DNA from: Verrucomicrobiota bacterium | Lineage (GTDB): Bacteria; Verrucomicrobiota; Verrucomicrobiia; Opitutales; Opitutaceae | DNA length: 64,000 bases | Assembly (NCBI GenBank): GCA_031404135.1 | Contig: JANNHA010000071.1 | Coordinates: 6,198 to 70,197 of the forward strand | Direction of reading: 5' to 3' | Made by a program: the position numbers and the translations under genes | Notes under the pieces: generated by a model | The model's input: only the letters and a program-made list of their open reading frames with translations | Told to the model about the DNA's origin: nothing | Database searches by the model: none | Shown here: piece by piece, positions 11,585 through 25,183 of the stretch | Position numbering within the stretch: position 1 is the stretch's first letter | Layout: each line of letters begins with the position of its first letter

Positions 11585-11771
11585 TTAGTTAGGAAAAGGA
11601 GCGGAATATATATTGACCTCGATGGATTGGTTGGTCACCTACCTGCGCAACGTTTTTATTTCAATGCGGGAGGGGCCTTTTCGGGAGGCCACAAAACACG
11701 GCGAGATGAAATCTCCGGCCAGCATCACTTCAGTACAACGGCTAACCTTTGTTTGCTATATTCGTTACCCC

Positions 11772-14700
11772 ATGAACACCCAACGTCTAACTTCCGCCCG
11801 TACTCCCACGTCGAGTGCCCCTATGCTCGCCCGGGCTCGTCGCTCGGTTGAACATGTCTCCTTTTGGTCACTCCTTTGTCGGGTGTTGCTGATCGGACAA
11901 TTCTTGCTGCCGACGCTGCCGGCGCGGGCGTGCGATTGGGATGAGCCCGACCCCGACCCCGAGCTCGTAGGGAGTGTAGATGTAATGATGGGCACGGATT
12001 ACTTTTTGGGTGCCTATGGTGAATTCTGTGAAGCTGATGTTTACGAAACAACGGAAACGTGGTGTGATTGGTATGAATGTTGGGAAAATGTTTATCAATG
12101 GGAGGACGCAGCATGGTGTGAGCCTATTGACGATGATGGTTGCGAAGGTGTAAATCCGCTCAATCCGGCTACGGGTAGCGTTCACCGAAAAATTAATGAT
12201 TTGGGCGGTCAAGGAGCGCTTAAATTTCAGCGTTATCACAATTCCGTGCCGCGCTTCACGTGGCAGAAGCTGAAATCCAGCGGCTTTGGGGATGGCGGGG
12301 ACTGGCGCCATAACTGGCAGTACGATCTGGTCGCGGACCGAGACAAAGATGGGGCACTCTATTTCCAATTTATCTATCCTTCCGGCCGACGAGTCGGAAT
12401 GAAATCCGACGGTGCCGGAACCTACGTGGGGCTTTATCAGGGCCCAGAACGTGCGCAGGTGTTGCCTTCGGGCCAAGTCGAATTCACGACGGGCGATGGG
12501 TCGCGGATTCTTTTTGCGCCGATACCTCGTATCGATTGGCGCACTTATTATACACCGAAAACGCTCACTCGGATCGGTGACCAAGTTTATACCTTTTCCC
12601 GAGATGGCGCGGGGCGATTGACCCGAGTCACCGATCCCGAGGGGCGCTGGCTAAACTTTGTCTATCGGGATATTGTGAAGCAGGGGTATCCTTGGCAGAA
12701 GGTCGCGACTTTGAGCGCACCTCCGGTGGCTGGTCAGTGGAATGAGATCACGCTGCCCGCAGAGCTGCGCTTACCTGCAACTCAGGTAAGCGTGCTGGTC
12801 CCTGGGGGTGCGGCCGTAGCTGATTTACAGTTTTTGGATGAAAGTGGGGCGGTGATAGCCCGCGATTCCTCTTCTGGAGCTCAGCCCGGAAATTTATTGT
12901 CGGTTGATGTTCCCGGTTCAGGTTTCCGCTTAGGCAAAGTGCGCTTTCTGCCTGCGCCCGGTAAAGAAGCGTTGTTAGTTGGTCTGGTCGTCAACTTGAT
13001 CTTGGTGCAGCCGCCGAGTGAAACGCAGTCGGTGATTTCCAGAGTGGAGACCAGTGATGGTCGTGCGGTGGACTACTATTATGCGATTTCTGCGCAGACG
13101 ATGAACGAACGGGTGATCTTGAGCGCAGCGCGGTATGGTGATGGCACCATGGCGCAGTATGGCTACTCGAAGCCCTCGGATCAGTATGGCAAGCAAGCAT
13201 TGCTGATTTCTGCCGACGATCCGCGTTACTCCGGGCCGGCAAAAAAAATCCGCTATGAGTATTATCAACCTGTCCGAGACAACCAACGGGTGGGCACCAT
13301 CAAGGCCGAGATCAATCCGACCACCGGTCATGCGTGGGCGAAGTTGGAGCTAGATTCCGCCAACCCACTCAAGCGTATCGTCAGCTATTCGGATGATCGC
13401 TTACATGTCTATCAACTGCTGGACAACACGACTAAAGTGAAGTCACGGACCGATTCTCTGGGGCGTAAGAATCAATACGAATATGCTAAAACCGGCGGAT
13501 TGCCTACAGCTGCGGTAGATTATCGTGGTGGACGCATCGAATTGGAACGCGATACCTTCGGGTACCCCATTTCGCGTATTAATGCCAAAGGCGGGGTTGA
13601 CAAGGTTCAGCGTGATGCTCACGGACGCAAACTCCGAACTACCGATAGCCATGGCCGGGTTACCGAAATTGTGCGTGATAGCGCAGGGCGCCCACAGCGC
13701 ATCACTAAACCCGATGGCTCCGTGCATGAATTCAGCCGTGACAGCGCAGGTCGGGTTCTCACCTATTCTGGAAAAAAGGGGCGGATGACGATCGGTCGCG
13801 ATGCGCAAGGTCGTCAAGTCAGCCGTCGAGATGCGCTGGGTAATACTAAATACGCCACCTATGATAATTACGGCCATATCGTTAGCCTTGTCGATTCTCT
13901 TGCGGGCGTCACGCGATACGAGCGCAGTGAGCGCGGGCTCATCAACAAGGTCACGAACCCTGATGGGCGCAGTCATTCATTTACCTATGACGATTACGGC
14001 CGTAAAATAGGCGAAACTAATATGGCTGGGCTCACCGCCAGCTATATGTACGACGATCTCAGTCGGGTGACGAAGAAGGTCGATTTTGCGGGCGGCGTGA
14101 CCACCTATGACTACTCGGAGTTTCCCGGCGGCTGCGGCTCCTGCAGCCTGTCGCAACAGCCCACGCGCGTCGTCGGACCTGATGGCATCGTCACCACTTT
14201 TCTCTATGATACTGAAGGGCGCGTTCTGGCGCGCACGGTCGCCAGCGGCACGCCTGCCGCCGCGACCACGCTGAACGAGTATGATCTCGACGATAACCTG
14301 ACCAGTGTCACCAATCCGTTGGGGCGTATCACCCGTTACACGTATGATGATGAAAAACACCGTCTCACCGCAACCGATCCGCTCGGCCGCGTAACGAAGT
14401 GGACTTATAATGAGTTCGGTAATGCCACTTCCATCACGGCTCCCGATGGCGGCATCACTCACCGCACCTACGACAAAGGCCAGCGCCTACTCTCTGCGAC
14501 CAACGCGGCTGGCGATACCACGCGATTTAAATACGACTTAGCTGGTCGTGTGATTGAAACGACCAATGCCGCCAAAAAGACAACGACCTTCGCGTATGAT
14601 GCCCTTGGCCGCAAGACCGCCACAACCTTTGCCGATGGCAAACGCCAGACTTGGAGCTATGATGTCGTGGGTCGCGTGACCAGCACGGTCTCGCCCGACG

Positions 14701-16973
14701 GTGTCACCACGAGCACGACGTATGATGTCGGCAATCGCCCGCTCACGATCACCAGGAACATCCCCGGTGGTGCGACCGAGACCGTGGCGATGACGTATGA
14801 TGCCCTAGGCAATCGCATCACCACGACCGATGCTCTCGGGCGCACCACGCGCTCGACCTATGATGCGCATGGCCATGTGCTCACGAGCACTCGGCCCGAT
14901 GGCCAGATCGGCGCGCGCAACAGTTACGACGCGCAGGACAATCTCATCAGCACGACCGATGCCGCCGGGGCGACGACGACCTTTACTTACGATGCAGCCC
15001 GTAATCAGACCTCACTCACGGATGCGAAGGGCAGCACCTATCGGTTCACGTATGACGCCCAGCGCCGCAAGACAGCCATGGTTTATCCGGATGATTCGCA
15101 GGAAAAATGGACGTATGATGCCGCCGGGAATCTGATTACCTACACGACCCGCGCCGGAGCGACCAAGACGATCGCCTACAACGGCCTGAACCAACCGGTC
15201 AGCGAAACCTGGAGCGCAGGCAGCGGGATGAACGCGGTCAGCTATGAGTACGATGCCGCCGGAAAACTCCGCTTCGCCGACAACGGCCAGGCCAAGCTCG
15301 GTTACGTTTATGATGAGCTCGGACGCGTGGCCTCCGAAAGCACGAATATTTCTGCGCTCGTGCCCGGACTGCCCCTCGAAAGCATCGACTATCAATACGA
15401 CAAATTGGGCCGCCGCTCGGGTCTGACTTATCCCGACAACACGAAGGTCAACTACGAATACGATGCGCGCAGTCGACTCACCACAATCGACACCCAAGGC
15501 GGTGGTAATAAACCATTGGCAAAGTATGAGTATGACGCGCTGGGCCGCATCGAAAAACTCACGCGTGACAATGCCGTGGGCACGAGCTACACCTACGACA
15601 TGGCCGGGCAACTCATCGACATCGCGCACACCCAGGGCAACCAAACCTTAGCCTCCGCGCACTACGAGCTCGACCCGCTCGGCCGCCGCACCGCGCAGAC
15701 TCGTGAGGACAGCATAACCGAACGCTACACCTACGATGCCACGAGCCAGTTGACCGGCGTGAACTACGGAACTGTAGGAGGGGCTTCACGCCCCGATTTC
15801 CCCACCACCGAAACCTTCGCGTACGATCCAACGGGCAACCGCACACAAGCCATCACCGTGAACCGTGAACCGAGAACCCAAAACTTCTCCTACACCACCA
15901 ACGCCCTGAACCAGTACACGCGGATCGATGTTGCCGACTCCTCGCTCCCTGCTCCCCGCTCCTCGCTTCCGACCTACGACCAGAACGGGAATCTCACGAA
16001 CGATGGCGAACGCAGGTTTAAATATGATTCGCAGAATCGGTTGATCGAAGTCGAAATGCTCGCTCCTCACTCCTCGCTCCTCGCTACTTACCATTACGAT
16101 CCCCGCAACCGCTGCGTCCTGCGCAAATATTATACACTTGGCACACAAGGCCAATGGGTGCTCAACACGACCGACTCCCGCGCCCTCACGTATGACGCGG
16201 GCTGGAACCTCCTCGCCGAGCGCACACTCGATGGCGTCCAATCCGCCAAATACATCCACGGAATCCGCACCGATGAAATCCTCCGTTCTGAAATCACAAA
16301 TCCATCAAATGGAAAATTGGAAAGCACCTACCCATTAGCGGACGGCTTGGGCAGCACAGTTGCGCTCACCAACAAGAACGGCAAAGTCACCGAACGCTAC
16401 CGCTACACCGCCTACGGCCAACCCACGGTTTTAAAATCCGACTACTCGCTCCCCGCTCCTGGCTCCTCGCTCCTGGGTTACCGCCACCTCTTCACCGGCC
16501 GTGAATGGCTCGCTAAAATCCAGCTCAACGATCACCGCAATCGGCATTACTCGCCAAACCTAGGCAGGTGGCTATCGACTGATCCCATTGGGTTCGAGGC
16601 CAAAGATGTCAATTTGTACCGATATGTTGGTGGCGATGTAATTGATCGGTATGATCCGAACGGGTTAAAGGAATTTGGAGATTGTTGGAGTAGTTGCATG
16701 GATGCAAACGGCGCAGACTGGGCGTTGGGGGCTCTTGGGGTTTCATTACCCGCAGTCAGTATTCCAAAACCATTTTATTCGGGTGCGCTTGGAAGCAGTA
16801 GCTGGACCACGGGGTTGAGCCTGCTAGAACATTACACCGGATTAGCTGCGAGACAGGTTGGCAGGCGGTGTAATCCGATTGCTAACGTCGTAGCAGTCGG
16901 TGCATTGAGCTACCTTGTTGGGCTGTCAGGAACTTGTTCCGTATATTGTTATGACGATCCGAATTCGTGGTAA
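11772..16973 (+). CDS. Rhs/YD-repeat polymorphic toxin with a short variable C-terminal tip
   Basis: Dozens of YD repeats (YxYDxxGR). The core-end motif DPIGFEAKDVNLYRYVGGDVIDRYDPNGL finishes at 16667. A 101-aa Cys/Gly-rich tip follows (16668-16970), where GC drops. The ATG at 11772 gives a hydrophobic leader. The ORF is open from 11613. Confidence 0.9.
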   Translation: MNTQRLTSARTPTSSAPMLARARRSVEHVSFWSLLCRVLLIGQFLLPTLPARACDWDEPDPDPELVGSVDVMMGTDYFLGAYGEFCEADVYETTETWCDWYECWENVYQWEDAAWCEPIDDDGCEGVNPLNPATGSVHRKINDLGGQGALKFQRYHNSVPRFTWQKLKSSGFGDGGDWRHNWQYDLVADRDKDGALYFQFIYPSGRRVGMKSDGAGTYVGLYQGPERAQVLPSGQVEFTTGDGSRILFAPIPRIDWRTYYTPKTLTRIGDQVYTFSRDGAGRLTRVTDPEGRWLNFVYRDIVKQGYPWQKVATLSAPPVAGQWNEITLPAELRLPATQVSVLVPGGAAVADLQFLDESGAVIARDSSSGAQPGNLLSVDVPGSGFRLGKVRFLPAPGKEALLVGLVVNLILVQPPSETQSVISRVETSDGRAVDYYYAISAQTMNERVILSAARYGDGTMAQYGYSKPSDQYGKQALLISADDPRYSGPAKKIRYEYYQPVRDNQRVGTIKAEINPTTGHAWAKLELDSANPLKRIVSYSDDRLHVYQLLDNTTKVKSRTDSLGRKNQYEYAKTGGLPTAAVDYRGGRIELERDTFGYPISRINAKGGVDKVQRDAHGRKLRTTDSHGRVTEIVRDSAGRPQRITKPDGSVHEFSRDSAGRVLTYSGKKGRMTIGRDAQGRQVSRRDALGNTKYATYDNYGHIVSLVDSLAGVTRYERSERGLINKVTNPDGRSHSFTYDDYGRKIGETNMAGLTASYMYDDLSRVTKKVDFAGGVTTYDYSEFPGGCGSCSLSQQPTRVVGPDGIVTTFLYDTEGRVLARTVASGTPAAATTLNEYDLDDNLTSVTNPLGRITRYTYDDEKHRLTATDPLGRVTKWTYNEFGNATSITAPDGGITHRTYDKGQRLLSATNAAGDTTRFKYDLAGRVIETTNAAKKTTTFAYDALGRKTATTFADGKRQTWSYDVVGRVTSTVSPDGVTTSTTYDVGNRPLTITRNIPGGATETVAMTYDALGNRITTTDALGRTTRSTYDAHGHVLTSTRPDGQIGARNSYDAQDNLISTTDAAGATTTFTYDAARNQTSLTDAKGSTYRFTYDAQRRKTAMVYPDDSQEKWTYDAAGNLITYTTRAGATKTIAYNGLNQPVSETWSAGSGMNAVSYEYDAAGKLRFADNGQAKLGYVYDELGRVASESTNISALVPGLPLESIDYQYDKLGRRSGLTYPDNTKVNYEYDARSRLTTIDTQGGGNKPLAKYEYDALGRIEKLTRDNAVGTSYTYDMAGQLIDIAHTQGNQTLASAHYELDPLGRRTAQTREDSITERYTYDATSQLTGVNYGTVGGASRPDFPTTETFAYDPTGNRTQAITVNREPRTQNFSYTTNALNQYTRIDVADSSLPAPRSSLPTYDQNGNLTNDGERRFKYDSQNRLIEVEMLAPHSSLLATYHYDPRNRCVLRKYYTLGTQGQWVLNTTDSRALTYDAGWNLLAERTLDGVQSAKYIHGIRTDEILRSEITNPSNGKLESTYPLADGLGSTVALTNKNGKVTERYRYTAYGQPTVLKSDYSLPAPGSSLLGYRHLFTGREWLAKIQLNDHRNRHYSPNLGRWLSTDPIGFEAKDVNLYRYVGGDVIDRYDPNGLKEFGDCWSSCMDANGADWALGALGVSLPAVSIPKPFYSGALGSSSWTTGLSLLEHYTGLAARQVGRRCNPIANVVAVGALSYLVGLSGTCSVYCYDDPNSW
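15936..15970 (+). repeat. In-frame heptamer array (GACTCCT CGCTCCC TGCTCCC CGCTCCT CGCTTCC) inside rhs
   Basis: Five consecutive 7-nt units, encoding DSSLPAPRSSLP. Confidence 0.65.
16059..16088 (+). repeat. In-frame heptamer array (CTCGCTC CTCACTC CTCGCTC CTCGCTA) inside rhs
   Basis: Four 7-nt units, encoding LAPHSSLLAT. Confidence 0.6.
16440..16474 (+). repeat. In-frame heptamer array (GACTACT CGCTCCC CGCTCCT GGCTCCT CGCTCCT) inside rhs
   Basis: Five 7-nt units, encoding DYSLPAPGSSLL. Near-copy of 15936-15970. Confidence 0.65.
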
Positions 16974-16975
16974 AT

Positions 16976-17389
16976 ATGAGCGGATTTCTTATTCTTGTGG
17001 GCGTTGTTATCGCATGGCTTGGATATGCGGCTAGGCAGATTGAAAAACGACGCCTTCCAGAAAAACTATCTAGATTTGCTGATAGAGAGTCGCTCTCTCC
17101 AGACATAATATATCAAAGATACTTCAACTCTAAGATGATGATACGGGTTGAAGAATTTATTCCAGTTTGGCAAGAAATAGGAGCACTTGCTAAACTTGAT
17201 CCAGAAAAGTTACGCCCATCAGATCGCTTCAAGGTAGAGCTGACGCCAGTATCTGGTCATTTGGTGGAAGACGAGCTTATCGATTTAGAGGATATGTTGC
17301 GTCGGAAATTGCGGCGTAAAGGGGCACCATTACCAAAGGAACCGCCGCAAAATCTTGAAGAGTACATCTGTATATTATTGGGGCCCTGA
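16976..17389 (+). CDS. Putative Rhs immunity protein (N-terminal TM helix)
   Basis: The ATG lies 2 nt after the rhs stop. AT-rich like the toxin tip. N terminus MSGFLILVGVVIAWLGYA is hydrophobic. I recognise no family; the call rests on position. Confidence 0.5.
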   Translation: MSGFLILVGVVIAWLGYAARQIEKRRLPEKLSRFADRESLSPDIIYQRYFNSKMMIRVEEFIPVWQEIGALAKLDPEKLRPSDRFKVELTPVSGHLVEDELIDLEDMLRRKLRRKGAPLPKEPPQNLEEYICILLGP

Positions 17390-17415
17390 GCCCCTGAAAA
17401 AGGGTCATGCTGCGA

Positions 17416-17445
17416 GGGCCAATAAAAAAAGGGCCAATAAAAAAA
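17416..17445. repeat. Tandem 15-mer GGGCCAATAAAAAAA x2
   Basis: Two exact adjacent copies just downstream of the immunity gene. Confidence 0.7.
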
Positions 17446-17485
17446 GGGTCGTGTTTTGTAGTTTGTAGTTGTTACCAACTTTTTT

Positions 17486-17850
17486 CTGGTCGTAAGAACT
17501 GCCAAATTGCGGTCGGATGACTTTTGGGCTTTGGGCCGGACTGGTATCGTATTTCGTAGCCAAATTGCCGCGCTGTGGTCGTATTTGTGACGGAAGCGAG
17601 CGGATGGGCAGATAGGAGGATGCAACGGTTACGATCAGACCGTAGCTGGCGCGCGCAGCCGATTTTCCATCGTACGTGTTCTGACCGGAGCGGTCGTAGG
17701 ATTTTGCGCCGAACTGTGGTCGTAGATCGGTTTTCGGGTCCGGCCGTACGCTCAGCGCGCAGCAATTTGGCTCGGCCGCGCTTTCATCGTAAGCGTTTCG
17801 GCCAAGGCGGTCGTACGGTTTTGAACTGCGCTGCCATCGTACGCCCACGT
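17486..17850. repeat. Degenerate repeat field with a periodic YCGTA core
   Basis: TCGTA/CCGTA cores at 17490, 17547, 17554, 17579, 17640, 17670, 17694, 17720, 17744, 17787, 17811 and 17837, many spaced 24-26 nt apart. The 48-nt units 17668-17716 and 17785-17833 are about 75% identical. Confidence 0.6.
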
Positions 17851-18119: not shown

Positions 18120-19754
18120 TCAGCTCTGGAGCACGGCGAGGGCTTTGTCGTGTTCGGCGTCGGTCATGTACGGGATGCTGGTTTCCGCGGCGGTTTCGCG
18201 GTTGGCGGCCATGAGGTCGCTGCGAGCGAGATCGCAAAGGCGCGACTTGCGTGCGCCGGCCATGAATTGTTGCAGGCCGCACGCGAGTTTGTCGGCGTAC
18301 GCGTACATCGCGACGGCACCGAGTGGAATTTTCTTCATTTCGGAGGCACCGACTTTTTTGGAGACAGCTTCCCATGAAACGAAGATTTCCTCTGCTTTGT
18401 CGCCGTAGGCGGTCACGGTAGCTGGCAGATCTTCCCAGTGGCCGTGCACGTTGGCGCGGTTGTCCGGGCGGAGCACGCCTTCGATGTTGCTGCCGAGGAA
18501 CGCCGGGATCATCGGGGCGCGGCCCATGCAAACGAGCTTCACAAAAGGCGCGCCGAGGGTGAGGGCTTTAAAGACGTGATCTTCGCGGGCGAAACCACCA
18601 GCAAAGGACAAATCGGGCACTTTCAGGCCGCGATCGGCGAGCATTTTGGTGTACTCGTAGGCGCGTGAGTGGAGCGAAAGCGAGGGCACGCCCCAGTATT
18701 CCATCATGTTCCACGGGCTCATGCCGGTGCCGCCGCCCGAACCATCGATCGTCAGTAAATCGAGTTCCGCGTCGGTGGAACAACGAATCGCCAGGGCCAA
18801 TGCTTCCATGCCGTAGGAACCGGTTTTGAGCGTGATGCGCTTGTGGCCAATGCCGCGCAGGTAGGTGACGGCCTTCATGAAGTCGTCGCGTACTTGCTGA
18901 GCGGAGTTCAGATTGGTGCCGCCGAGCCGGCTGTGGCGGGCGAAGTGGCGGATGGCGCCGGATTTGAAACCGGCTTCGACGATGGGATCGTAAGGATCGG
19001 GATCGACGATGTAGCCGCGGTCTTTGAGGAAGCGCGCGTACTCGATGTTATCGACCTGAATTTCGCCACCGATGCATTTGGCACCCTGGCCCCATTTGAG
19101 TTCGAGGATGACTTTGTCGCCGTATTTTTCGACGAGGTATTCGGCAACGCCGTTTCGGGTGTCTTCTACGTTCATCTGCACGATCATGGCGCCGTAACCA
19201 TCATAATAGCGCAGGAACATCTCGATGCGGCGGTCGAGCTCCGGGGAGATTTCAATGCGGCCTTTTTTGAGGACAGATTTGCGGTCAACACCGACCACGT
19301 TCTCACCGACAACAATCGGAAATCCGGAGAGCGCGGCACCGATGGCGAAGGAATCCCAGTAGCGGGCGGCTACAAAGGTGGAGCCGAGTGCGCCGGTCAT
19401 GATCGGGACGCGGCATTTGACGGGCATCGAGCGGCCGAACTGGGTCGAGATGTCGACGTTGGGGAAGATGCAGTTGTCGGCGTCGTGGTTCGGGTTATTG
19501 CCGTGCCAACCGTAAGCGTAGCCTTGGATGCGGAGCGATTGATAGCCCACGCCGATGGCGGTGGTGTTGGCCGAACCAGAGGTGATGTAGCCAAATTTGC
19601 GCGGGTAGAGCAATTCGCGTCCGCGCATGGACGAGAGCCAGGTTTCGCATTTACCTTTACAGGCGGAGTCGCAAAGGGTGCAGAGGCCGGATTCACAGGG
19701 ATTGCCTCGGTTTACGGTGCCGAGCGCGTCGTTACTTTTTCTCCATTCGATCAT
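18120..19754 (-). CDS. Glutamate synthase-related FMN-binding protein (GltB domain-2-like, COG0069 type)
   Basis: 544 aa. N-terminal Cys cluster CESGLCTLCDSACKGKCE. FMN/TIM-barrel blocks IDGSGGGTGMSPW and SFAGGF. Confidence 0.8.
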   Translation of the reverse strand: MIEWRKSNDALGTVNRGNPCESGLCTLCDSACKGKCETWLSSMRGRELLYPRKFGYITSGSANTTAIGVGYQSLRIQGYAYGWHGNNPNHDADNCIFPNVDISTQFGRSMPVKCRVPIMTGALGSTFVAARYWDSFAIGAALSGFPIVVGENVVGVDRKSVLKKGRIEISPELDRRIEMFLRYYDGYGAMIVQMNVEDTRNGVAEYLVEKYGDKVILELKWGQGAKCIGGEIQVDNIEYARFLKDRGYIVDPDPYDPIVEAGFKSGAIRHFARHSRLGGTNLNSAQQVRDDFMKAVTYLRGIGHKRITLKTGSYGMEALALAIRCSTDAELDLLTIDGSGGGTGMSPWNMMEYWGVPSLSLHSRAYEYTKMLADRGLKVPDLSFAGGFAREDHVFKALTLGAPFVKLVCMGRAPMIPAFLGSNIEGVLRPDNRANVHGHWEDLPATVTAYGDKAEEIFVSWEAVSKKVGASEMKKIPLGAVAMYAYADKLACGLQQFMAGARKSRLCDLARSDLMAANRETAAETSIPYMTDAEHDKALAVLQS

Positions 19755-19874
19755 TTGATGAGGGGGTTTAAACGGTTAGCGGAAGAAGGCGTTTCGAACG
19801 GTGAGGTACGACAGCGCCATGGGTGATGCGAACAGAGAAATCTTTGCGGAGAAGACGGTGGTTCGGCGAGCGTA

Positions 19875-19897
19875 AACTATGAAAAATATTCATAGTT
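19875..19897. promoter_or_regulatory. Perfect 9-bp inverted repeat AACTATGAA-AAATA-TTCATAGTT (candidate operator)
   Basis: Exact palindrome about 120 nt upstream of the start at 19754, in an otherwise GC-rich spacer. Confidence 0.4.
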
Positions 19898-19980
19898 AGA
19901 GCCTGTTTGGGTTTCCGGGCACAAAAAGGCCCGGGCAAACGACGTTCGCACCGGGCCGAGATTGACGAGGGAGAGAAGTT

Positions 19981-20559
19981 TTATAGCCAGGCTTTGCCGG
20001 CTGGGAGAACTTCGCGGCCGAAGAGGTCGTTGAGGATGATACGGGCCATCATGTACCAAGCGCCGAGCGCGCAGACGATTAACTCGTAACCGGCAATCTT
20101 GTTCCAAATCGGATCGCCGAAGTGGCCGATGTCGAGGAGAACGAAGCCGATTAGGAGAAGCGTGAAAGTCGTCGCCATCGCGCCGTGGACGCGCATCGAA
20201 CCGATCCAGAGGATAACGGTAAAGAGTGTCCACGCGATGAGGAACCAGCCGACATCGGTATGAGTAGCGGTGAAGACGCCGAATTTATTCCCGAGCAGCA
20301 TCAGGCAAAGGCTGATCCAGAAAGCGCCGTACGCGGTAAACGCGCAGTAGCCGAAGTTGTTGCCCATTTTCATTTCCTGGAAGCCGGCGATCATTTGCAC
20401 GAGGCCGCCGAAAACGAGGCCGACCCAGATGACCGGGCCGGTGCCCATCCAGCCCACGTTGTGGAACTGGAGTAGGAGAGTGGTTAGGCCGAAACCGGCG
20501 AGACCGACAACCGCCGGATTTGCGAGTTTAGGTGTGGGAGGAGTGGATGGGTTGGACAT
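19981..20559 (-). CDS. satP: GPR1/FUN34/YaaH-family acetate/succinate transporter
   Basis: 192 aa with six predicted TM segments. N-terminal signature NPAVVGLAGFGLTTLLLQFHN. Confidence 0.85.
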   Translation of the reverse strand: MSNPSTPPTPKLANPAVVGLAGFGLTTLLLQFHNVGWMGTGPVIWVGLVFGGLVQMIAGFQEMKMGNNFGYCAFTAYGAFWISLCLMLLGNKFGVFTATHTDVGWFLIAWTLFTVILWIGSMRVHGAMATTFTLLLIGFVLLDIGHFGDPIWNKIAGYELIVCALGAWYMMARIILNDLFGREVLPAGKAWL

Positions 20560-20570
20560 GGAAAAGTGGT

Positions 20571-20598
20571 GGTAAGTGGTAAGGTGTAAGCGATAAGG
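20571..20598. repeat. Heptamer array GGTAAGT GGTAAGG TGTAAGC GATAAGG in the satP 5' leader
   Basis: TAAG recurs at 20573, 20580, 20587 and 20594 (exact 7-nt phase), 12-40 nt upstream of the minus-strand start codon. Confidence 0.65.
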
Positions 20599-20962
20599 CG
20601 GAGACGCCTCTGTTCGGCCACAAAAGGGTTAAACGCTAGGACGCAGCGCCGCCGGGGTAAGCGCGAAGTGGTGGACGTTCGTAGCTATTAGGCGCGAAGT
20701 GCGGGCCTGAAGGATTTGTGATAGGAGAAGCCGAAAAAGTCCTATTCCACTCGGTGATGGGACGATGCGTATCTCGCCAACTTCCTGCCGCTTTGCCTAG
20801 AGCCGGCGATGTTGACGGAAAAGGATGACGGCGGGGCAGACATTCGTCCTCAAAATTAAATCCATGCACGTCGCAAAAATTGCCAATAATTACCGCCTTA
20901 ACAGTATTAATAGCCTTTTTTTTGATTAGAAATACGGTAAAGGCGCGAAAATATCGGTAAAA

Positions 20963-21050
20963 TACTGCTTTAGAGGTAATATATTATAATATTCGTCAAT
21001 TATCACCTTGCTGGATTCGTTTTTATGAACTAATTACCGCTAAAGCAGCA
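20963..21050. promoter_or_regulatory. Candidate hipBST operator/promoter region
   Basis: TACTGCTTTAGAGGTAAT (20963-20980) is the inverted partner of ATTACCGCTAAAGCAGCA (21033-21050, abutting the hipB ATG). A third half-site ATTACCGCC lies at 20889-20897. The surrounding 180 nt is strongly AT-rich. Confidence 0.4.
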
Positions 21051-21356
21051 ATGACCCCTCTCTCTCAACTCATTCAAAGCCACCGCAAGAAGGCGGGGTT
21101 GGTCCAAGCTCAACTGGCGAAGCTCGCAGGGGTGGGCAAGACCGTCGTCTGGGACCTCGAAAATGGCAAAGAGTCAGTCCAGTGGGACACACTCCAGAAG
21201 ATTTTTCGTGTACTCAACATCACTGTCGAATGGCGCAGTCCCTTGCTTGATCGCATGGCATCGTTGGCCCCGGCCCGTTCCTCGGCGGTGTCTTCGTCCT
21301 CAGCTGAACCTCCTGCCGGTGGCACCTCCGTCGCAGAACCCCTCACGCCGTTATGA
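21051..21356 (+). CDS. hipB: HipB-like XRE-family HTH protein
   Basis: HTH block KKAGLVQAQLAKLAGVGKTVVWDLENGKESVQWDTLQKIFRVLN. First gene of a three-gene operon with overlapping ends. Confidence 0.75.
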   Translation: MTPLSQLIQSHRKKAGLVQAQLAKLAGVGKTVVWDLENGKESVQWDTLQKIFRVLNITVEWRSPLLDRMASLAPARSSAVSSSSAEPPAGGTSVAEPLTPL

Positions 21357-21661
21357 AATCTGCCCGCATCTTTCAAAAGGACCAGTTGGCCGGTATATTC
21401 GAGGCCTGCGATGACGGCAGCTACCGGTTCACCTACGAGCCCGGCTACTGCGGCGAGCCGGTGTCGCTCACCCTGCCGACGCGCCAGCGGGTTTGGGAAT
21501 TCCCGCGCTTTCCCGCGCCGTTCGAGGGCCTTCTTCCTGAGGGCGTGCAGCTCGATGCCCTGCTGCGGATTCGCAAACTCGATCAACACGACCTATTCGG
21601 CCAACTGCTCGCAGTCGGAAACGACGTGGTTGGATCACTTCGCATCCAGGCCGTCAAATGA
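21353..21661 (+). CDS. hipS: HipS-like protein (stand-alone HipA N-terminal subdomain)
   Basis: 102 aa. MKSARIFQKDQLAGIFEA...FEGLLPEGVQLDALL resembles the HipA N-terminal (couple_hipA) domain. ATGA overlaps at both ends. Confidence 0.75.
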   Translation: MKSARIFQKDQLAGIFEACDDGSYRFTYEPGYCGEPVSLTLPTRQRVWEFPRFPAPFEGLLPEGVQLDALLRIRKLDQHDLFGQLLAVGNDVVGSLRIQAVK

Positions 21662-22581
21662 GGTGCTTGATCACGAATGAGCCGTGGGAGGGACCGGGGC
21701 CGTATTCGCCGGTCGGCCTGCGGCAGCTTGACCGGCGGCTCACGTCGCTTGCTCCACTGCCGTACACCCGAGAGCAGCTGATTGAGGAGGCCGCCGCGCG
21801 CGCCGTAAAGATGTCGATCCAGGGTATTCAGGCAAAGGTAAGCACCGTGCTGCGCGTGAACGACGGCCTGATGGAAATCGTGGACAACGGCGGACGTTAT
21901 ATCGTCAAGCCGCCGCACCCCCTCTACGCCGAACTCCCGGAAAATGAAGCGCTCACGATGTCACTTGCAGCGACCCTGGGCATCGAAGTACCCGTGCATG
22001 GACTTTTGCTCAACGGCGACCATACCCGTTCCTATTTTGTCCGGCGCTTCGATCGGGTGGGCTGGAACAAACAGCCGTTGGAGGACTTCGCCCAGTTAAG
22101 CGGTGCCAGCCGCGACACAAAGTATGCTTCCAGCACCGAGCGCCTGATCGAAATCCTCGACCAATTCTGCACCTTCCCGGCTCTCGAGCGCATGAAATTC
22201 TTCGATCGGCTCCTGTGCGCCTATTTGACTGGCAACGAAGACATGCACCTCAAGAACTGGTCGCTCATCACGCGTGACGACAAAGTGGAACTGTCTCCCG
22301 CCTACGACCTGCTGAATTCAACCAGCCCGAATCCCAAGAGCCGGGAGGAACTTGCGCTGCCGTTGCACGGCAAGAAATCCAATCTCTGTGCAAACGACTT
22401 TTGGCGGTATCTCGCTGGCGAGCGGTTAGGTCTTGCGCCCGCTTTAATCGAGCAGACCAAGGCGCGCTTCGTAGCGGTGTGCGCGGGATGGCCCGCCCGG
22501 ATTGAAAACAGTTTTCTCTCCAAAGAGATGAAGGGACGATACCTCGATTTGCTCGGCGAACGGCGAGCTCGGGTCTTGTAA
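21658..22581 (+). CDS. hipT: HipT-like serine/threonine kinase toxin (HipA C-terminal kinase core)
   Basis: 307 aa. Gly-rich loop KMSIQGIQAKVS and catalytic block GNEDMHLKNWSL...SPAYDLLN. It lacks the HipA N-subdomain, which is supplied by the upstream ORF. Confidence 0.8.
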   Translation: MRCLITNEPWEGPGPYSPVGLRQLDRRLTSLAPLPYTREQLIEEAAARAVKMSIQGIQAKVSTVLRVNDGLMEIVDNGGRYIVKPPHPLYAELPENEALTMSLAATLGIEVPVHGLLLNGDHTRSYFVRRFDRVGWNKQPLEDFAQLSGASRDTKYASSTERLIEILDQFCTFPALERMKFFDRLLCAYLTGNEDMHLKNWSLITRDDKVELSPAYDLLNSTSPNPKSREELALPLHGKKSNLCANDFWRYLAGERLGLAPALIEQTKARFVAVCAGWPARIENSFLSKEMKGRYLDLLGERRARVL

Positions 22582-22583
22582 CT

Positions 22584-22922
22584 GATATTTCACTCCATAA
22601 CCACAAACTACAAAACCTGACTCTGTTCGATTATCTCTGGATTGTCGCCGAAGCGATCTACGTGCTGCGCGATGTCTACGGGCTCAAGGACCGCGCCCAA
22701 CTTGCCGGGCTTCTGCGTAAGTTCTGCCAAGCGGCTGGCATCGTTACCGATAGCTACGTGTTCGACGCCCTCACGCGCTACGAAAAAAAGAACGTCGATT
22801 TTGCCGAGGCTTTATTGGCGGACGAAGCTGCGGCTCTTGGCGTGCGCCCGGTTTCTTTCGACCGCGATTTGGATAAGTTTTCCGACGTTAAACGGCTCGA
22901 ACCGGGCGACGTGTTTGCCTGA
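22584..22922 (+). pseudogene. 5'-truncated PIN-domain (VapC-like) toxin gene
   Basis: AEAIYVLRDVYGLK...VDFAEALLADEAAALGVRPVSFDRDLDKFSDVKRLEP matches the C-terminal two-thirds of VapC PIN proteins. The frame has no ATG (first start is GTG 22662). The N-terminal DTN(V/I) acidic motif is absent, and homology fades at the hipT stop. Confidence 0.5.
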
Positions 22923-22946
22923 CACGGCGGCTCATTCTTACGTTGT

Positions 22947-23690
22947 TTAAGTCTGCCGCAGTCGATGTTGCTCACGAAACAGGCGGGCGGCGCGGCGGGA
23001 AAACCTCACTACCGTTCCATCCGTGAGCGTGGCTGTGAGGTTGTTTTCGCGGACCAAATCAGTACGTGCGACATACGCCAGATTCAGAAGCTGACTGCGG
23101 CTGGCGCACACGAAATGTCGCGGATCGAGATGTGCTGCGAGAGCATCCAGCGATGACAATAATAACGGATGATGCGTGTCGAAGTGGATGCGGCAGTAGT
23201 TGCCCACGCATTCGGCGAGCCGAATTTTTTTCACCGGCACGAACCAGCAGCGATCACCATCGCGAATGAAAAGGGTGTCGTCGTCGCCGAGTTTTCCGGG
23301 TGGGGCCGCCTTGTTGGACTGCGTTGTACGGAGGTGGGTGAGTCGCTCGCGCACACGGGCGAGAGCGGCTGCGAGGTGTGCTGGTTCGACGGGTTTGAGC
23401 AGATAATCGAGCGCGTTTACTCGAAATGCCTGCAACGCGTGCCGGTTGTGAGCGGTTATGAAAATGACTTCCGGGACAGGCGGCGGTAGCGCGGCGAGCA
23501 GTGCGAACCCGTCTGGTCCAGGCATCTGAATGTCGAGCAAAAGCACGTCGGGTTTCATTCGGGCGATGAGTTCACGGGCCTCTTCGCTGTGAGCGGCTTC
23601 GCCGACGACTTCAACGTCAGGTGACATACGGAGTAGTTCCCGCAATTCATCTCGCGCAAGACGCTCGTCGTCGATGATGAGAACTTTCAT
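22947..23690 (-). CDS. LytR/AlgR-family response regulator (REC + LytTR)
   Basis: MKVLIIDDERLARDEL...DVLLLDIQMPG receiver domain plus a C-terminal LytTR DNA-binding domain. 4-nt overlap with the upstream kinase gene. Confidence 0.9.
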   Translation of the reverse strand: MKVLIIDDERLARDELRELLRMSPDVEVVGEAAHSEEARELIARMKPDVLLLDIQMPGPDGFALLAALPPPVPEVIFITAHNRHALQAFRVNALDYLLKPVEPAHLAAALARVRERLTHLRTTQSNKAAPPGKLGDDDTLFIRDGDRCWFVPVKKIRLAECVGNYCRIHFDTHHPLLLSSLDALAAHLDPRHFVCASRSQLLNLAYVARTDLVRENNLTATLTDGTVVRFSRRAARLFREQHRLRQT

Positions 23691-25183
23691 GGAAGTGGGA
23701 TCGATATCTCCGCCGTGGTGCAGCCGGATGGTTTGGGATAAAGGCGGAGGGTCGCTCGTTCGCCACAGGCGAGTCGGAGTCGCTCGCGGGCATTGCGGAG
23801 GCCCAGACCATCGGAAGTTTCGGCCGGTGCTGCAGAGTCTGGAGCGACAGGGTTGATCACACGCACGAGGCAGACTCCATCGGCCGTAATGGCTGTTACG
23901 GTGAGTTCGCCCCCGTCCACTCGCCGAGCGATCCCGTGCTTCACTGCATTTTCCACCAAAGTTTGAAGCACCAGCGGCGGCAAAAGCACCTGGGCTGCTT
24001 CGGGTGCCAGGCTGAGTCGTGGGCGCAATCGACCTTCGAAACGAAATTGCTCCAGTGCGAGGTAGTTATCAACGGCAGCAAACTCATCGCTCAAGGGCAC
24101 GGTCGCTGCCTCGCTGGCTTGCATCGATGAGCGAAGAAAGGCTGCGAGACGTGTGGTGAAATCGCGCCCGCCAGCGGGGTCGGCCTGGATCAGGCGGCGC
24201 AAGGTATTGAGGGCGTTGAAGAGAAAATGTGGCTGTACCTGCGCCCGCAGGGCGTTCCATTCGGCTTCACGTGCGAGCGCGTTGCGCGTGCGGGCTTCGC
24301 TGGCAGTCAGCTCGGCGCGTACGGAGGCAAGCAAAAGGGCGGTGGCCGCAGTCAGGGTGTTGTAGGTGACGAGCAGCGCGAGACTGTGGAGCGTGTTGGG
24401 CGCCGCAAACGGGCCGCAGTCAAAAATCGTGGCGAGTGTGCTGGCGAGCGAGACGAGCAGATTGGCGAGTGCCGCGCCACGTACGCCTTGCACGAAGGCG
24501 ATCCACACGACAAACGGGAATGGCAGGTAGGCGAGTGGCCAACCGCCGATGCCGAGAGTGTATTCATGTGAGAAACCGACTACCACCGCCAACGTGAGCG
24601 CTGTGAAAGGCAGAAACGCCAGCTTGCGAATGGCCAACATGCGGTCAGGCCCGACAACCGTGAGCAGCGCGGGCGCGATCATCAGAATGCCCGCGGCATT
24701 GGCCACCCAATAGAGCGTGGCAGAATATAAGAAACGATCCGCTGGAAGAACGCCGCCGAGTGTGAGCCCGGTGATGCCGAGCGCGGCACTGATGAGCGGT
24801 GGCAACGCGACGCCGCCGACGAAGAAGCGTAGCACATCGCGTGCTCTTTCAAAGCTTGGATTGACCGGCCACACGCGGGTGAGCAGCCACCAGGCGGCGA
24901 GCGCTTCGAGCATATTGCCGACCGGGCCGAGCGCGAGGAACGGCCACGGATCGCCCGCAATCACATTGCTCGCCAGTGTGCCGATCCACACGCCAGGTGC
25001 GAGTCGCGGACCGAAGCGCAGCAATGCGGCGACAGCGACGCCTGAAGCAGGCCAGAGTGGACTGACGACAGACGCGTGGCTGAGGGAAAGCCACACCCCG
25101 GCCTTGGAAAAAAGGAGCACGGCAACCGCGAGGACAAAACTAGGCGCAAAAGCCCGGAGAGCGGAGGCAAGGCGCAGCAGCAT
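23687..25183 (-). CDS. LytS/YehU-type sensor histidine kinase with a multi-TM (MASE1-like) sensor
   Basis: About 300 aa of TM helices, then the His_kinase box QVQPHFLFNALNTLRRLI and an HATPase region (LVENAVKHG, GLGLRN). Confidence 0.85.
   Translation of the reverse strand: MLLRLASALRAFAPSFVLAVAVLLFSKAGVWLSLSHASVVSPLWPASGVAVAALLRFGPRLAPGVWIGTLASNVIAGDPWPFLALGPVGNMLEALAAWWLLTRVWPVNPSFERARDVLRFFVGGVALPPLISAALGITGLTLGGVLPADRFLYSATLYWVANAAGILMIAPALLTVVGPDRMLAIRKLAFLPFTALTLAVVVGFSHEYTLGIGGWPLAYLPFPFVVWIAFVQGVRGAALANLLVSLASTLATIFDCGPFAAPNTLHSLALLVTYNTLTAATALLLASVRAELTASEARTRNALAREAEWNALRAQVQPHFLFNALNTLRRLIQADPAGGRDFTTRLAAFLRSSMQASEAATVPLSDEFAAVDNYLALEQFRFEGRLRPRLSLAPEAAQVLLPPLVLQTLVENAVKHGIARRVDGGELTVTAITADGVCLVRVINPVAPDSAAPAETSDGLGLRNARERLRLACGERATLRLYPKPSGCTTAEISIPLP

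Follow-up and report, generated by a model that had tools for sequence, protein, structure and literature searches.

HipBST toxin-antitoxin systems, in which a HipA-like kinase is split between two genes, have been described in Legionella pneumophila (Lp), Escherichia coli O127:H6 and Haemophilus influenzae. Here we analyze a hipBST locus at positions 21051-22581 of a 64,000-nucleotide stretch of DNA (hereafter the window) from an uncultured freshwater-sediment Opitutaceae bacterium (Verrucomicrobiota), in which the locus is chromosomal. We conclude that this locus is very probably a complete and apparently functional type II tripartite module of the Legionella type, forming a self-contained chromosomal cassette of ~1.7 kb. 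This conclusion rests on what was observed directly, namely the order of the genes, the identities of their domains, the conservation of residues, and the sequence and spacing of the operators.

A good deal is known about the Legionella system. Baerentsen et al. (2023, PMC10627512) defined an 'SIQ group' of HipT kinases, with Gln or Pro in the second position, and Lin et al. (2023, PMC10653801) found homologues of the Legionella toxin, HipT(Lp), to be typified by a single-serine SVQ/SIQ motif. The autophosphorylation site of HipT(Lp) was mapped to Ser54, and the phospho-form still binds an ATP analogue (Zhen et al. 2022, PMC9325769). Both S54A and S54D variants keep their toxicity (Lin et al. 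2023, PMC10653801), and autophosphorylation of Ser54 leaves the kinase un-inactivated (PMC9325769, PMC10653801). Binding of HipS to HipT(Lp) results in P-loop ejection or a loop-to-helix shift (PMC9325769, PMC10653801). In electrophoretic mobility-shift assays, HipB(Lp) occupies three operators, each 18 nt long and separated by gaps of 53 bp, of which O1 overlaps the promoter, and HipT-HipB-DNA complexes form in this system (PMC10653801). The growth arrest caused by HipT(Lp) is rescued by neither TrpS nor GltX, and phosphoproteomics and library screens gave no validated target (PMC10653801). Operator conservation was described in the same study for 28 Legionella species only, and its main text makes no mention of Verrucomicrobia (Lin et al., PMC10653801). 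Lpg2370 has also been read as a secreted effector; we set this reading aside, since translocation of HipT(Lp) was not above that of untranslocated controls (Lin et al., PMC10653801).

The hipBST genes and their products

The list of open reading frames (ORFs) and their translations shows three overlapping plus-strand genes, in the order hipB-hipS-hipT.

21051..21356, plus strand: hipB, predicted XRE-type helix-turn-helix (HTH) repressor of 101 aa; HTH at residues ~4-62, then a ~35-aa low-complexity Ser/Ala/Pro C-terminal tail
21353..21661, plus strand: hipS, predicted antitoxin of 102 aa, equivalent to N-subdomain 1 of HipA; Val65/Gln66
21658..22581, plus strand: hipT, predicted Ser/Thr kinase toxin of 307 aa; P-loop K51-M-S53-I-Q55-G-I-Q-A-K60; K84, D195, H197, N200 and D217

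An earlier note on this DNA, made from the sequence alone, had described three coupled ORFs of 101, 102 and 307 aa. Their coordinates (21051-21356, 21353-21661 and 21658-22581) were reproduced, and ATGA start/stop overlaps are present in the raw sequence at 21353-21356 and 21658-21661. The motifs that it named, GNEDMHLKNWSL, SPAYDLLN and the loop KMSIQGIQAK, were all found in the kinase ORF. A single 12.4-kb contig from a freshwater-sediment metagenome, at 34.5x depth, covers 19800-23800 without any difference, and hence the gene junctions are not an assembly chimera.

An exact-sequence look-up of the window HipT returned no contig on record, and relatives were used instead. The comparison set comprised 80 loci from species-representative genomes and 6 from exact-protein look-ups; hipB, hipS and hipT are colinear in all 86. 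More broadly, database searches at E<=1e-20 gave >5,800 homologues, and 552 stretches were confirmed in species-representative genomes; the family is very abundant in Verrucomicrobia. The closest homologues are 76-90% identical and, where named, carry the label Opitutaceae, Opitutus or Verrucomicrobia.

Profile searches assigned all three products to their families far above chance level. HipB matched the Pfam models HTH_31 (7.6e-9) and HTH_3 (1.6e-8), both above cut-off. HipS matched Couple_hipA (PF13657, 1.4e-17) over model positions 2-98 of 99, as well as the NCBIfam model TIGR03071 couple_hipA (2.5e-18), both above cut-off. HipT matched HipA_C (PF07804, 1.4e-42) over residues 52-270, with no match to Couple_hipA in the Pfam profile search. 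Among solved structures, the best match of HipT was HipT(Lp) (8.8e-95, residues 2-305), compared to 1.6e-26 for O127 HipT. Values for HipS were 5.3e-28 (HipS(Lp)), 3.9e-9 (HI_0666) and 5.1e-8 (O127 HipS), and HipB was best matched by HipB(Lp) (PDB 8ezt, 3.5e-16).

For the split of HipA, the annotated hipA of E. coli K-12 was fetched as reference. HipS aligns to HipA residues 7-103, that is, N-subdomain 1 (BLASTP, E 5e-6), while HipT aligns to residues 201-336 (E 3e-10), including GATDGHAKN/GNEDMHLKN and FYD/AYD. The earlier note's identification of a tripartite HipBST with a split HipA was thus right on every sequence-level test, be it profiles, solved HipB, HipS and HipT, or the K-12 alignment. 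It had proposed profile searches and alignment to characterised HipT and HipS, for which the matches above (Couple_hipA, HipA_C and the solved structures) are the outcome. It had also named findings that would count against it, among them a 102-aa ORF unlike the HipA N-subdomain and a kinase without catalytic residues; by sequence, the ORF resembles that subdomain and the kinase has these residues. A single-sequence AlphaFold2 model of HipS was too poor for fold comparison (predicted local distance difference test score, 51).

Conservation of individual residues is consistent with these assignments. HipT K60, K84, D195, H197, N200, D217, S53 and R152 are invariant among 84 relatives. The ATP-binding and catalytic residues equivalent to K60, K84, H197, N200 and D217 are essential, as judged by mutagenesis (PMC9325769), and K64, K86, D210, H212, N215 and D233 of O127 HipT align with window K60, K84, D195, H197, N200 and D217, respectively. 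In HipS, residues E58, P62 and G64 are conserved among relatives. E58/P62 contact HipT R154 in Legionella, and the equivalent residue in the window is the invariant R152. At the position of E. coli HipS Trp65, the window has Val65/Gln66 and Legionella I65/M66. Across 87 sequences, position 65 is most often Ile (33) or Val (30), then Gly, Met or Ala, with Trp not in the top five.

The P-loop follows the same pattern. HMMER aligns window S53 with Lp Ser54, O127 Ser57 and HipA Ser150, and window Q55 with Lp Gln56 and O127 Ser59. All 86 readable P-loops of the subclade have S-[IVL]-Q (SIQ, 69; SVQ, 16; SLQ, 1). It had been suggested in the earlier note that only one of two regulatory serines is present here. 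That much stands, with S-I-Q aligned to S-I-S, but any notion of a local loss does not: because Gln occupies the position in 86/86 readable subclade loops, the second serine was not lost locally. The S-I-Q twist is already published, and hence is not new.

One alternative is that the locus works like E. coli O127:H6 HipBST, with TrpS as the target, a Trp plug in HipS, and a phospho-switch that originally had two sites and here retains only one. The tripartite architecture is equal in the two cases, homology is significant (HipT 1.6e-26, HipS 5.1e-8), and characterised HipA-family toxins mostly target aminoacyl-tRNA synthetases (PMC10653801). However, the window proteins are far nearer to the Legionella trio (HipT 8.8e-95, HipS 5.3e-28), the universal Gln means that nothing was lost locally, HipS has Val65/Gln66 in place of Trp65, the operators (see below) are of the Legionella kind, and HipT(Lp) is not rescued by overexpression of TrpS or GltX. 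We therefore consider an O127-like mode of action improbable. Every feature of the Legionella subclade that was tested by sequence was found in the window, whereas S-psi-S and Trp65, the features of the E. coli subclade, were both absent. Because the proper reference is the Legionella subclade rather than E. coli O127, neither the expectation of TrpS as target nor the 'lost serine' twist can be transferred to this locus. The former, which the earlier note had brought in from E. coli, is accordingly not carried over, given that neither TrpS nor GltX rescues HipT(Lp).

HipB of the Opitutaceae clade (L001-L024) has a 20-55-aa low-complexity, Ser/Ala/Pro-rich C-terminal tail of variable length and sequence, which in the window spans 21240-21353 (residues ~64-101). 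Tails of relatives frequently end in RSPRRKRSS. In loci outside the Opitutaceae clade, HipB is 73-86 aa long and lacks the tail. This tail may be a disordered degron or linker.

Predicted operators and promoter, and proposed mechanism

Upstream of hipB, we identified three predicted operators and a promoter-like element.

20889..20908, no strand: distal operator, O3-like; ATTACCGCCTTAACAGTATT, at -162 from the hipB ATG
20961..20980, no strand: middle operator, O2-like; AATACTGCTTTAGAGGTAAT, at -90 from the hipB ATG
21008..21013, plus strand: putative promoter element, -35-like; TTGCTG (consensus in the clade, CCTTGAAA), ~40 nt before the hipB start
21033..21052, no strand: proximal operator, O1-like; ATTACCGCTAAAGCAGCAAT, at -18; abuts and overlaps the hipB start codon

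The predicted operators, each an imperfect palindrome of 20 bp, are separated by 52-nt gaps and have a 72-bp period (inverted-repeat arms), and they match the Legionella O1-O3 layout in both motif and period. The same arrangement recurs in Opitutaceae-clade loci, where the sites lie at -18, -89/-90 and -160/-162 relative to the start of hipB, and a site in the distal position is present in most of these loci and in other phyla. Conservation is best for the proximal operator, which has 0-3 mismatches in most Opitutaceae-clade loci and is a perfect clade consensus in the window. In an alignment of 16 Opitutaceae upstream regions, the proximal operator columns are invariant, and the TTG (21008-21010) of the -35-like element is invariant or nearly so. 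If TTGCTG acts as a -35 element, then the -10 box and the transcription start would lie inside the proximal operator. The 260-nt regions upstream of hipB in loci L001-L086 hold 2.70 sites each on average, versus 0.013 in shuffled controls. The palindrome TTACYGC-N4-GCRGTAA, with three sites spaced by ~71-72 bp, is seen in Legionella (TTTACTGCTATAACAGTAAT), Verrucomicrobiota, Bacteroidota, Desulfobacterales and Actinomycetes loci.

The operon had been placed in an AT-rich pocket. This does not apply to the operon itself, the GC content of which (0.55-0.64) is like that of the flanks (0.54-0.62), but it does apply to the ~180-bp intergenic stretch just upstream of hipB (20870-21050), to which GC values of 0.42-0.44 (300-nt windows) are restricted. 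This AT-rich stretch is the promoter/operator region. Farther upstream, ~310 bp of non-coding DNA (20560-20870, GC 0.54-0.56) lie between the start of a GPR1/FUN34/YaaH-family gene and the first operator, and are not homologous to any part of the relatives' hipBST loci. Scanning 19500-23500 against Rfam gave no match at E<=0.1, and thus no known RNA element lies in the unusually long satP-hipB intergenic region.

By homology to the Legionella system, we infer for this locus that HipT is toxic and autophosphorylates and that HipB binds DNA; HipS, and not HipB, would neutralise the toxin, as in E. coli and Legionella. HipT would be a HipA-like kinase toxin. HipS, the detached N-subdomain 1 of HipA, would bind HipT and force the P-loop out of the active site, either by a loop-to-helix shift or by ejection, such that ATP binding is blocked without the Trp65 plug of E. 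coli. HipB dimers would bind the three TTACYGC-N4-GCRGTAA palindromes, 72 bp apart, and repress the operon; the proximal operator overlaps the start codon and would overlap the promoter. The repressor form is probably a larger HipB-HipT-HipS-DNA complex. Ser53 would be the single autophosphorylation site, and its phosphorylation probably does not switch the kinase off. To judge from HipT(Lp), the cellular target is probably neither TrpS nor GltX.

A broader proposal, which we hold tentatively and at a little short of even chances, is that Legionella-type HipT kinases, that of the window included, hit a substrate other than GltX, TrpS and LysS and are controlled by HipS/HipB occupancy only. Such a distinct logic could be reflected in two invariant features of the subclade, a single-serine S-psi-Q loop whose phosphorylation leaves the kinase active and a three-operator promoter phased by ~71 bp, which is shared by Legionella, Verrucomicrobiota, Bacteroidota and Desulfobacterales. 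The Opitutaceae-specific and possibly disordered tail of HipB might serve as an additional degron or take part in binding HipT.

Several observations weigh against assigning the locus to the Legionella type as a working module. The match of HipB to the NCBIfam model TIGR03070 couple_hipB (1.3e-17, 63.5 bits) falls under the cut-off of 71.65, and the ~35-aa low-complexity tail of HipB has no Legionella counterpart. HipT is only 52% identical to HipT(Lp), and hence its target and regulation could differ from those in Legionella. The proximal operator abuts the start codon here and ends 24 nt upstream of it in Legionella, so promoter geometry may differ as well. A simple sigma-70 consensus scan of 20870-21050 gave no plus-strand promoter, and no RNA-seq runs holding the hipBST sequence were found.

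Relatives, genomic context and the vapC relic

DNA similarity to Opitutaceae relatives (72-79%) is limited to ~20935-22575, a stretch that begins in the operator region and reaches the 3' end of hipT. The neighbors of hipBST differ in every genome examined, with IS21 upstream, a Fic gene downstream, or PIN and UPF0158 genes. Because homology is confined to the module while the neighbors vary, hipBST behaves as a mobile cassette of ~1.7 kb. In the window, its surroundings include the following.

11613-16973, further upstream: RHS-repeat toxin gene, 1786 aa; PF05593 (2e-97) and DUF6531
19981-20559, minus strand: GPR1/FUN34/YaaH-family channel gene, the upstream neighbor of hipBST
22582..22637, no strand: 56-nt spacer between the hipT stop and the vapC relic
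22638..22922, plus strand: vapC relic; 3' 285 nt, codons 46-139 of 139, PIN domain, without a start codon
22947-25183, minus strand: LytTR/MASE1 two-component pair, the downstream neighbor

No tRNA was found within the 64-kb window, and no integrase match was obtained among the neighboring ORFs scanned; therefore, no island is defined around hipBST. The RHS gene is followed by an overlapping 140-aa ORF (region 11613-17389) with no family match, which could be an immunity gene. GC content falls to 0.42-0.47 at 17000-17500.

The earlier note's decapitated vapC beside the operon was confirmed, in that 22638-22922 holds codons 46-139 only and is accompanied by no vapB. The relic is 90% (nt) or 95% (aa) identical to 139-aa PIN genes such as P0121 (PF01850), with homology that begins abruptly at 22638 (codon 46) and ends at the stop codon. 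It gave no Pfam PIN match at E<0.1. The first catalytic Asp sits in the N-terminal part of the PIN domain, which the relic lacks. The spacer (22582-22637) has no homology to relatives of hipT or of vapC. Insertion of hipBST into an otherwise retained vapBC was rejected, as vapB and vapC codons 1-45 are absent from the whole 64-kb window. P0121, the closest full-length relative of the relic, occurs in four metagenome contigs (L087-L090 4744-5420) with a MazE/AbrB-type vapB, within an element that encodes a tyrosine integrase, a DnaG-like primase and a TrwC relaxase. Since P0121 lies in such an integrase-primase-relaxase element, a mobile-element origin of the relic is suggested.

A 376-nt contig (2.9x) from a sister sample (run X2) matches the window up to 22634, repeats CCTGACTCTGTTCGATTATC (22616-22635) once, and then runs on with 82 nt. 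It thus diverges from the window at 22635, exactly at the breakpoint of the vapC relic. Neither the divergent flank nor the duplicated 20-mer was found elsewhere in the window or in 93 loci. Either it represents a strain variant whose right flank is different, or it is a chimera assembled at low depth.

With a truncated PIN gene adjoining hipBST, one may ask whether the operon, like the relic, is a decaying non-functional remnant. Decay does happen in the clade, as the relative P0111 has a frameshifted hipS fused to hipT. In this 399-aa protein from a metagenome-assembled genome, HipS breaks off at ~residue 75 and, through a change of reading frame, leads on into a complete HipT that has 79% identity to that of the window; this frameshift or fusion of hipS and hipT reflects either a copy in decay or an error of sequencing. 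In the window, however, none of the three ORFs is shortened, both ATGA couplings are kept, all catalytic and ATP-binding residues are intact, and all three operators are present, the proximal one as a perfect clade consensus. Moreover, the proteins are closer to those of relatives (76-90% identity) than the DNA is (72-79%), a pattern suggestive of purifying selection. These data make decay highly improbable and favor an intact Legionella-type module.

The context also bears on function. The biochemistry might be the same and yet serve anti-phage abortive infection, as opposed to region stabilisation or persistence. Placement is patchy and context-independent, conflict genes lie nearby (the RHS toxin gene at 11613-16973 and the vapC relic), and HipT weakly matches the PADLOC candidate-defence model PDC-M03A (1.6e-7, ~60 residues only). 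That match, however, is limited to the catalytic-loop region common to all HipA-like kinases; HipS matches none of the PADLOC models, and the only models matched by HipB are of the generic HTH, regulator and candidate-system kinds. No phage phenotype is reported for any HipBST in the HipBST literature examined. On balance, we regard an anti-phage role as unlikely, though less so than decay or an O127-like mode of action.

In the public gene calls of Opitutaceae (L001 5364-6004; L005 4512-5152), hipB is omitted and hipS over-extended to 153-169 aa. The over-extended hipS stems from an out-of-frame upstream start that runs through the low-complexity hipB tail, and hipB (111 aa) is intact in both L001 and L005. 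Users of Opitutaceae annotation should be aware that gene calls often contain these two errors.

Comparison with described systems

The locus is an ordinary further member of the published Legionella-type HipBST subclade. Its comparative value is modest, and lies in showing that a P-loop with one serine, a HipS without Trp65 and a promoter with three operators, as characterised in Legionella, are invariant hallmarks of a large multi-phylum clade. The sole wider question it touches is the target of the Legionella-subclade HipT kinase; whichever target HipT(Lp) has is probably common to environmental Verrucomicrobia.

In HipBA of E. coli K-12 (HipA b1507/HipB b1508), HipS and HipT correspond to one HipA chain, in which the P-loop serine is Ser150, and an HTH protein HipB likewise represses via multiple palindromic operators. 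The kinase is undivided there, however, whereas in the split system the N-subdomain, rather than HipB, is the antitoxin. In addition, HipA targets GltX, and the operator sequence of the hipBA promoter is unlike the Legionella type (PMC10653801). The H. influenzae pair HI_0666/HI_0665 (HipS/HipT; PDB 7CZO) shares the split HipA and includes a HipS homologue (3.9e-9). It differs in belonging to the E. coli-like gammaproteobacterial group, where E. coli TrpS relieves the toxicity of HipT (PMC10653801).

HipBST of enteropathogenic E. coli O127:H6 (PDB 7AB3/7AB4/7AB5) is alike in the split HipA, the HipS antitoxin, the HTH regulator HipB and the catalytic residues. However, it represents a distant subclade (1.6e-26), with a dual phosphosite, S57-I-S59, where the window has S53-I-Q55, and with a Trp65 plug in HipS where the window has Val65. 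Its established target, TrpS, is an unlikely one for the window system.

The closest resemblance is to L. pneumophila HipBST (Lpg2368-Lpg2369-Lpg2370; PDB 8EZR/8EZS/8EZT, 7VKB/7VKC and 7WCF). The two loci share gene order and all three proteins (HipT 52% identity; HipS 5.3e-28; HipB 3.5e-16), a single-serine S-psi-Q P-loop (SIQ in the window, SVQ in Lp), and a small residue rather than Trp at HipS position 65. HipT R152 with HipS E58/P62 corresponds to the R154-E58/P62 contact of Lp, and both loci have three palindromic operators of near-identical sequence with a ~71-72-bp period. The window locus differs in its host, a freshwater-sediment member of the Opitutaceae (Verrucomicrobiota), in its 101-aa HipB with a Ser/Ala/Pro tail, in the ATGA overlap of hipS and hipT (the Legionella hipT start is not in such an overlap), and in the location of the proximal operator, at the start codon instead of 24 nt upstream. 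These differences from the Legionella prototype are minor.

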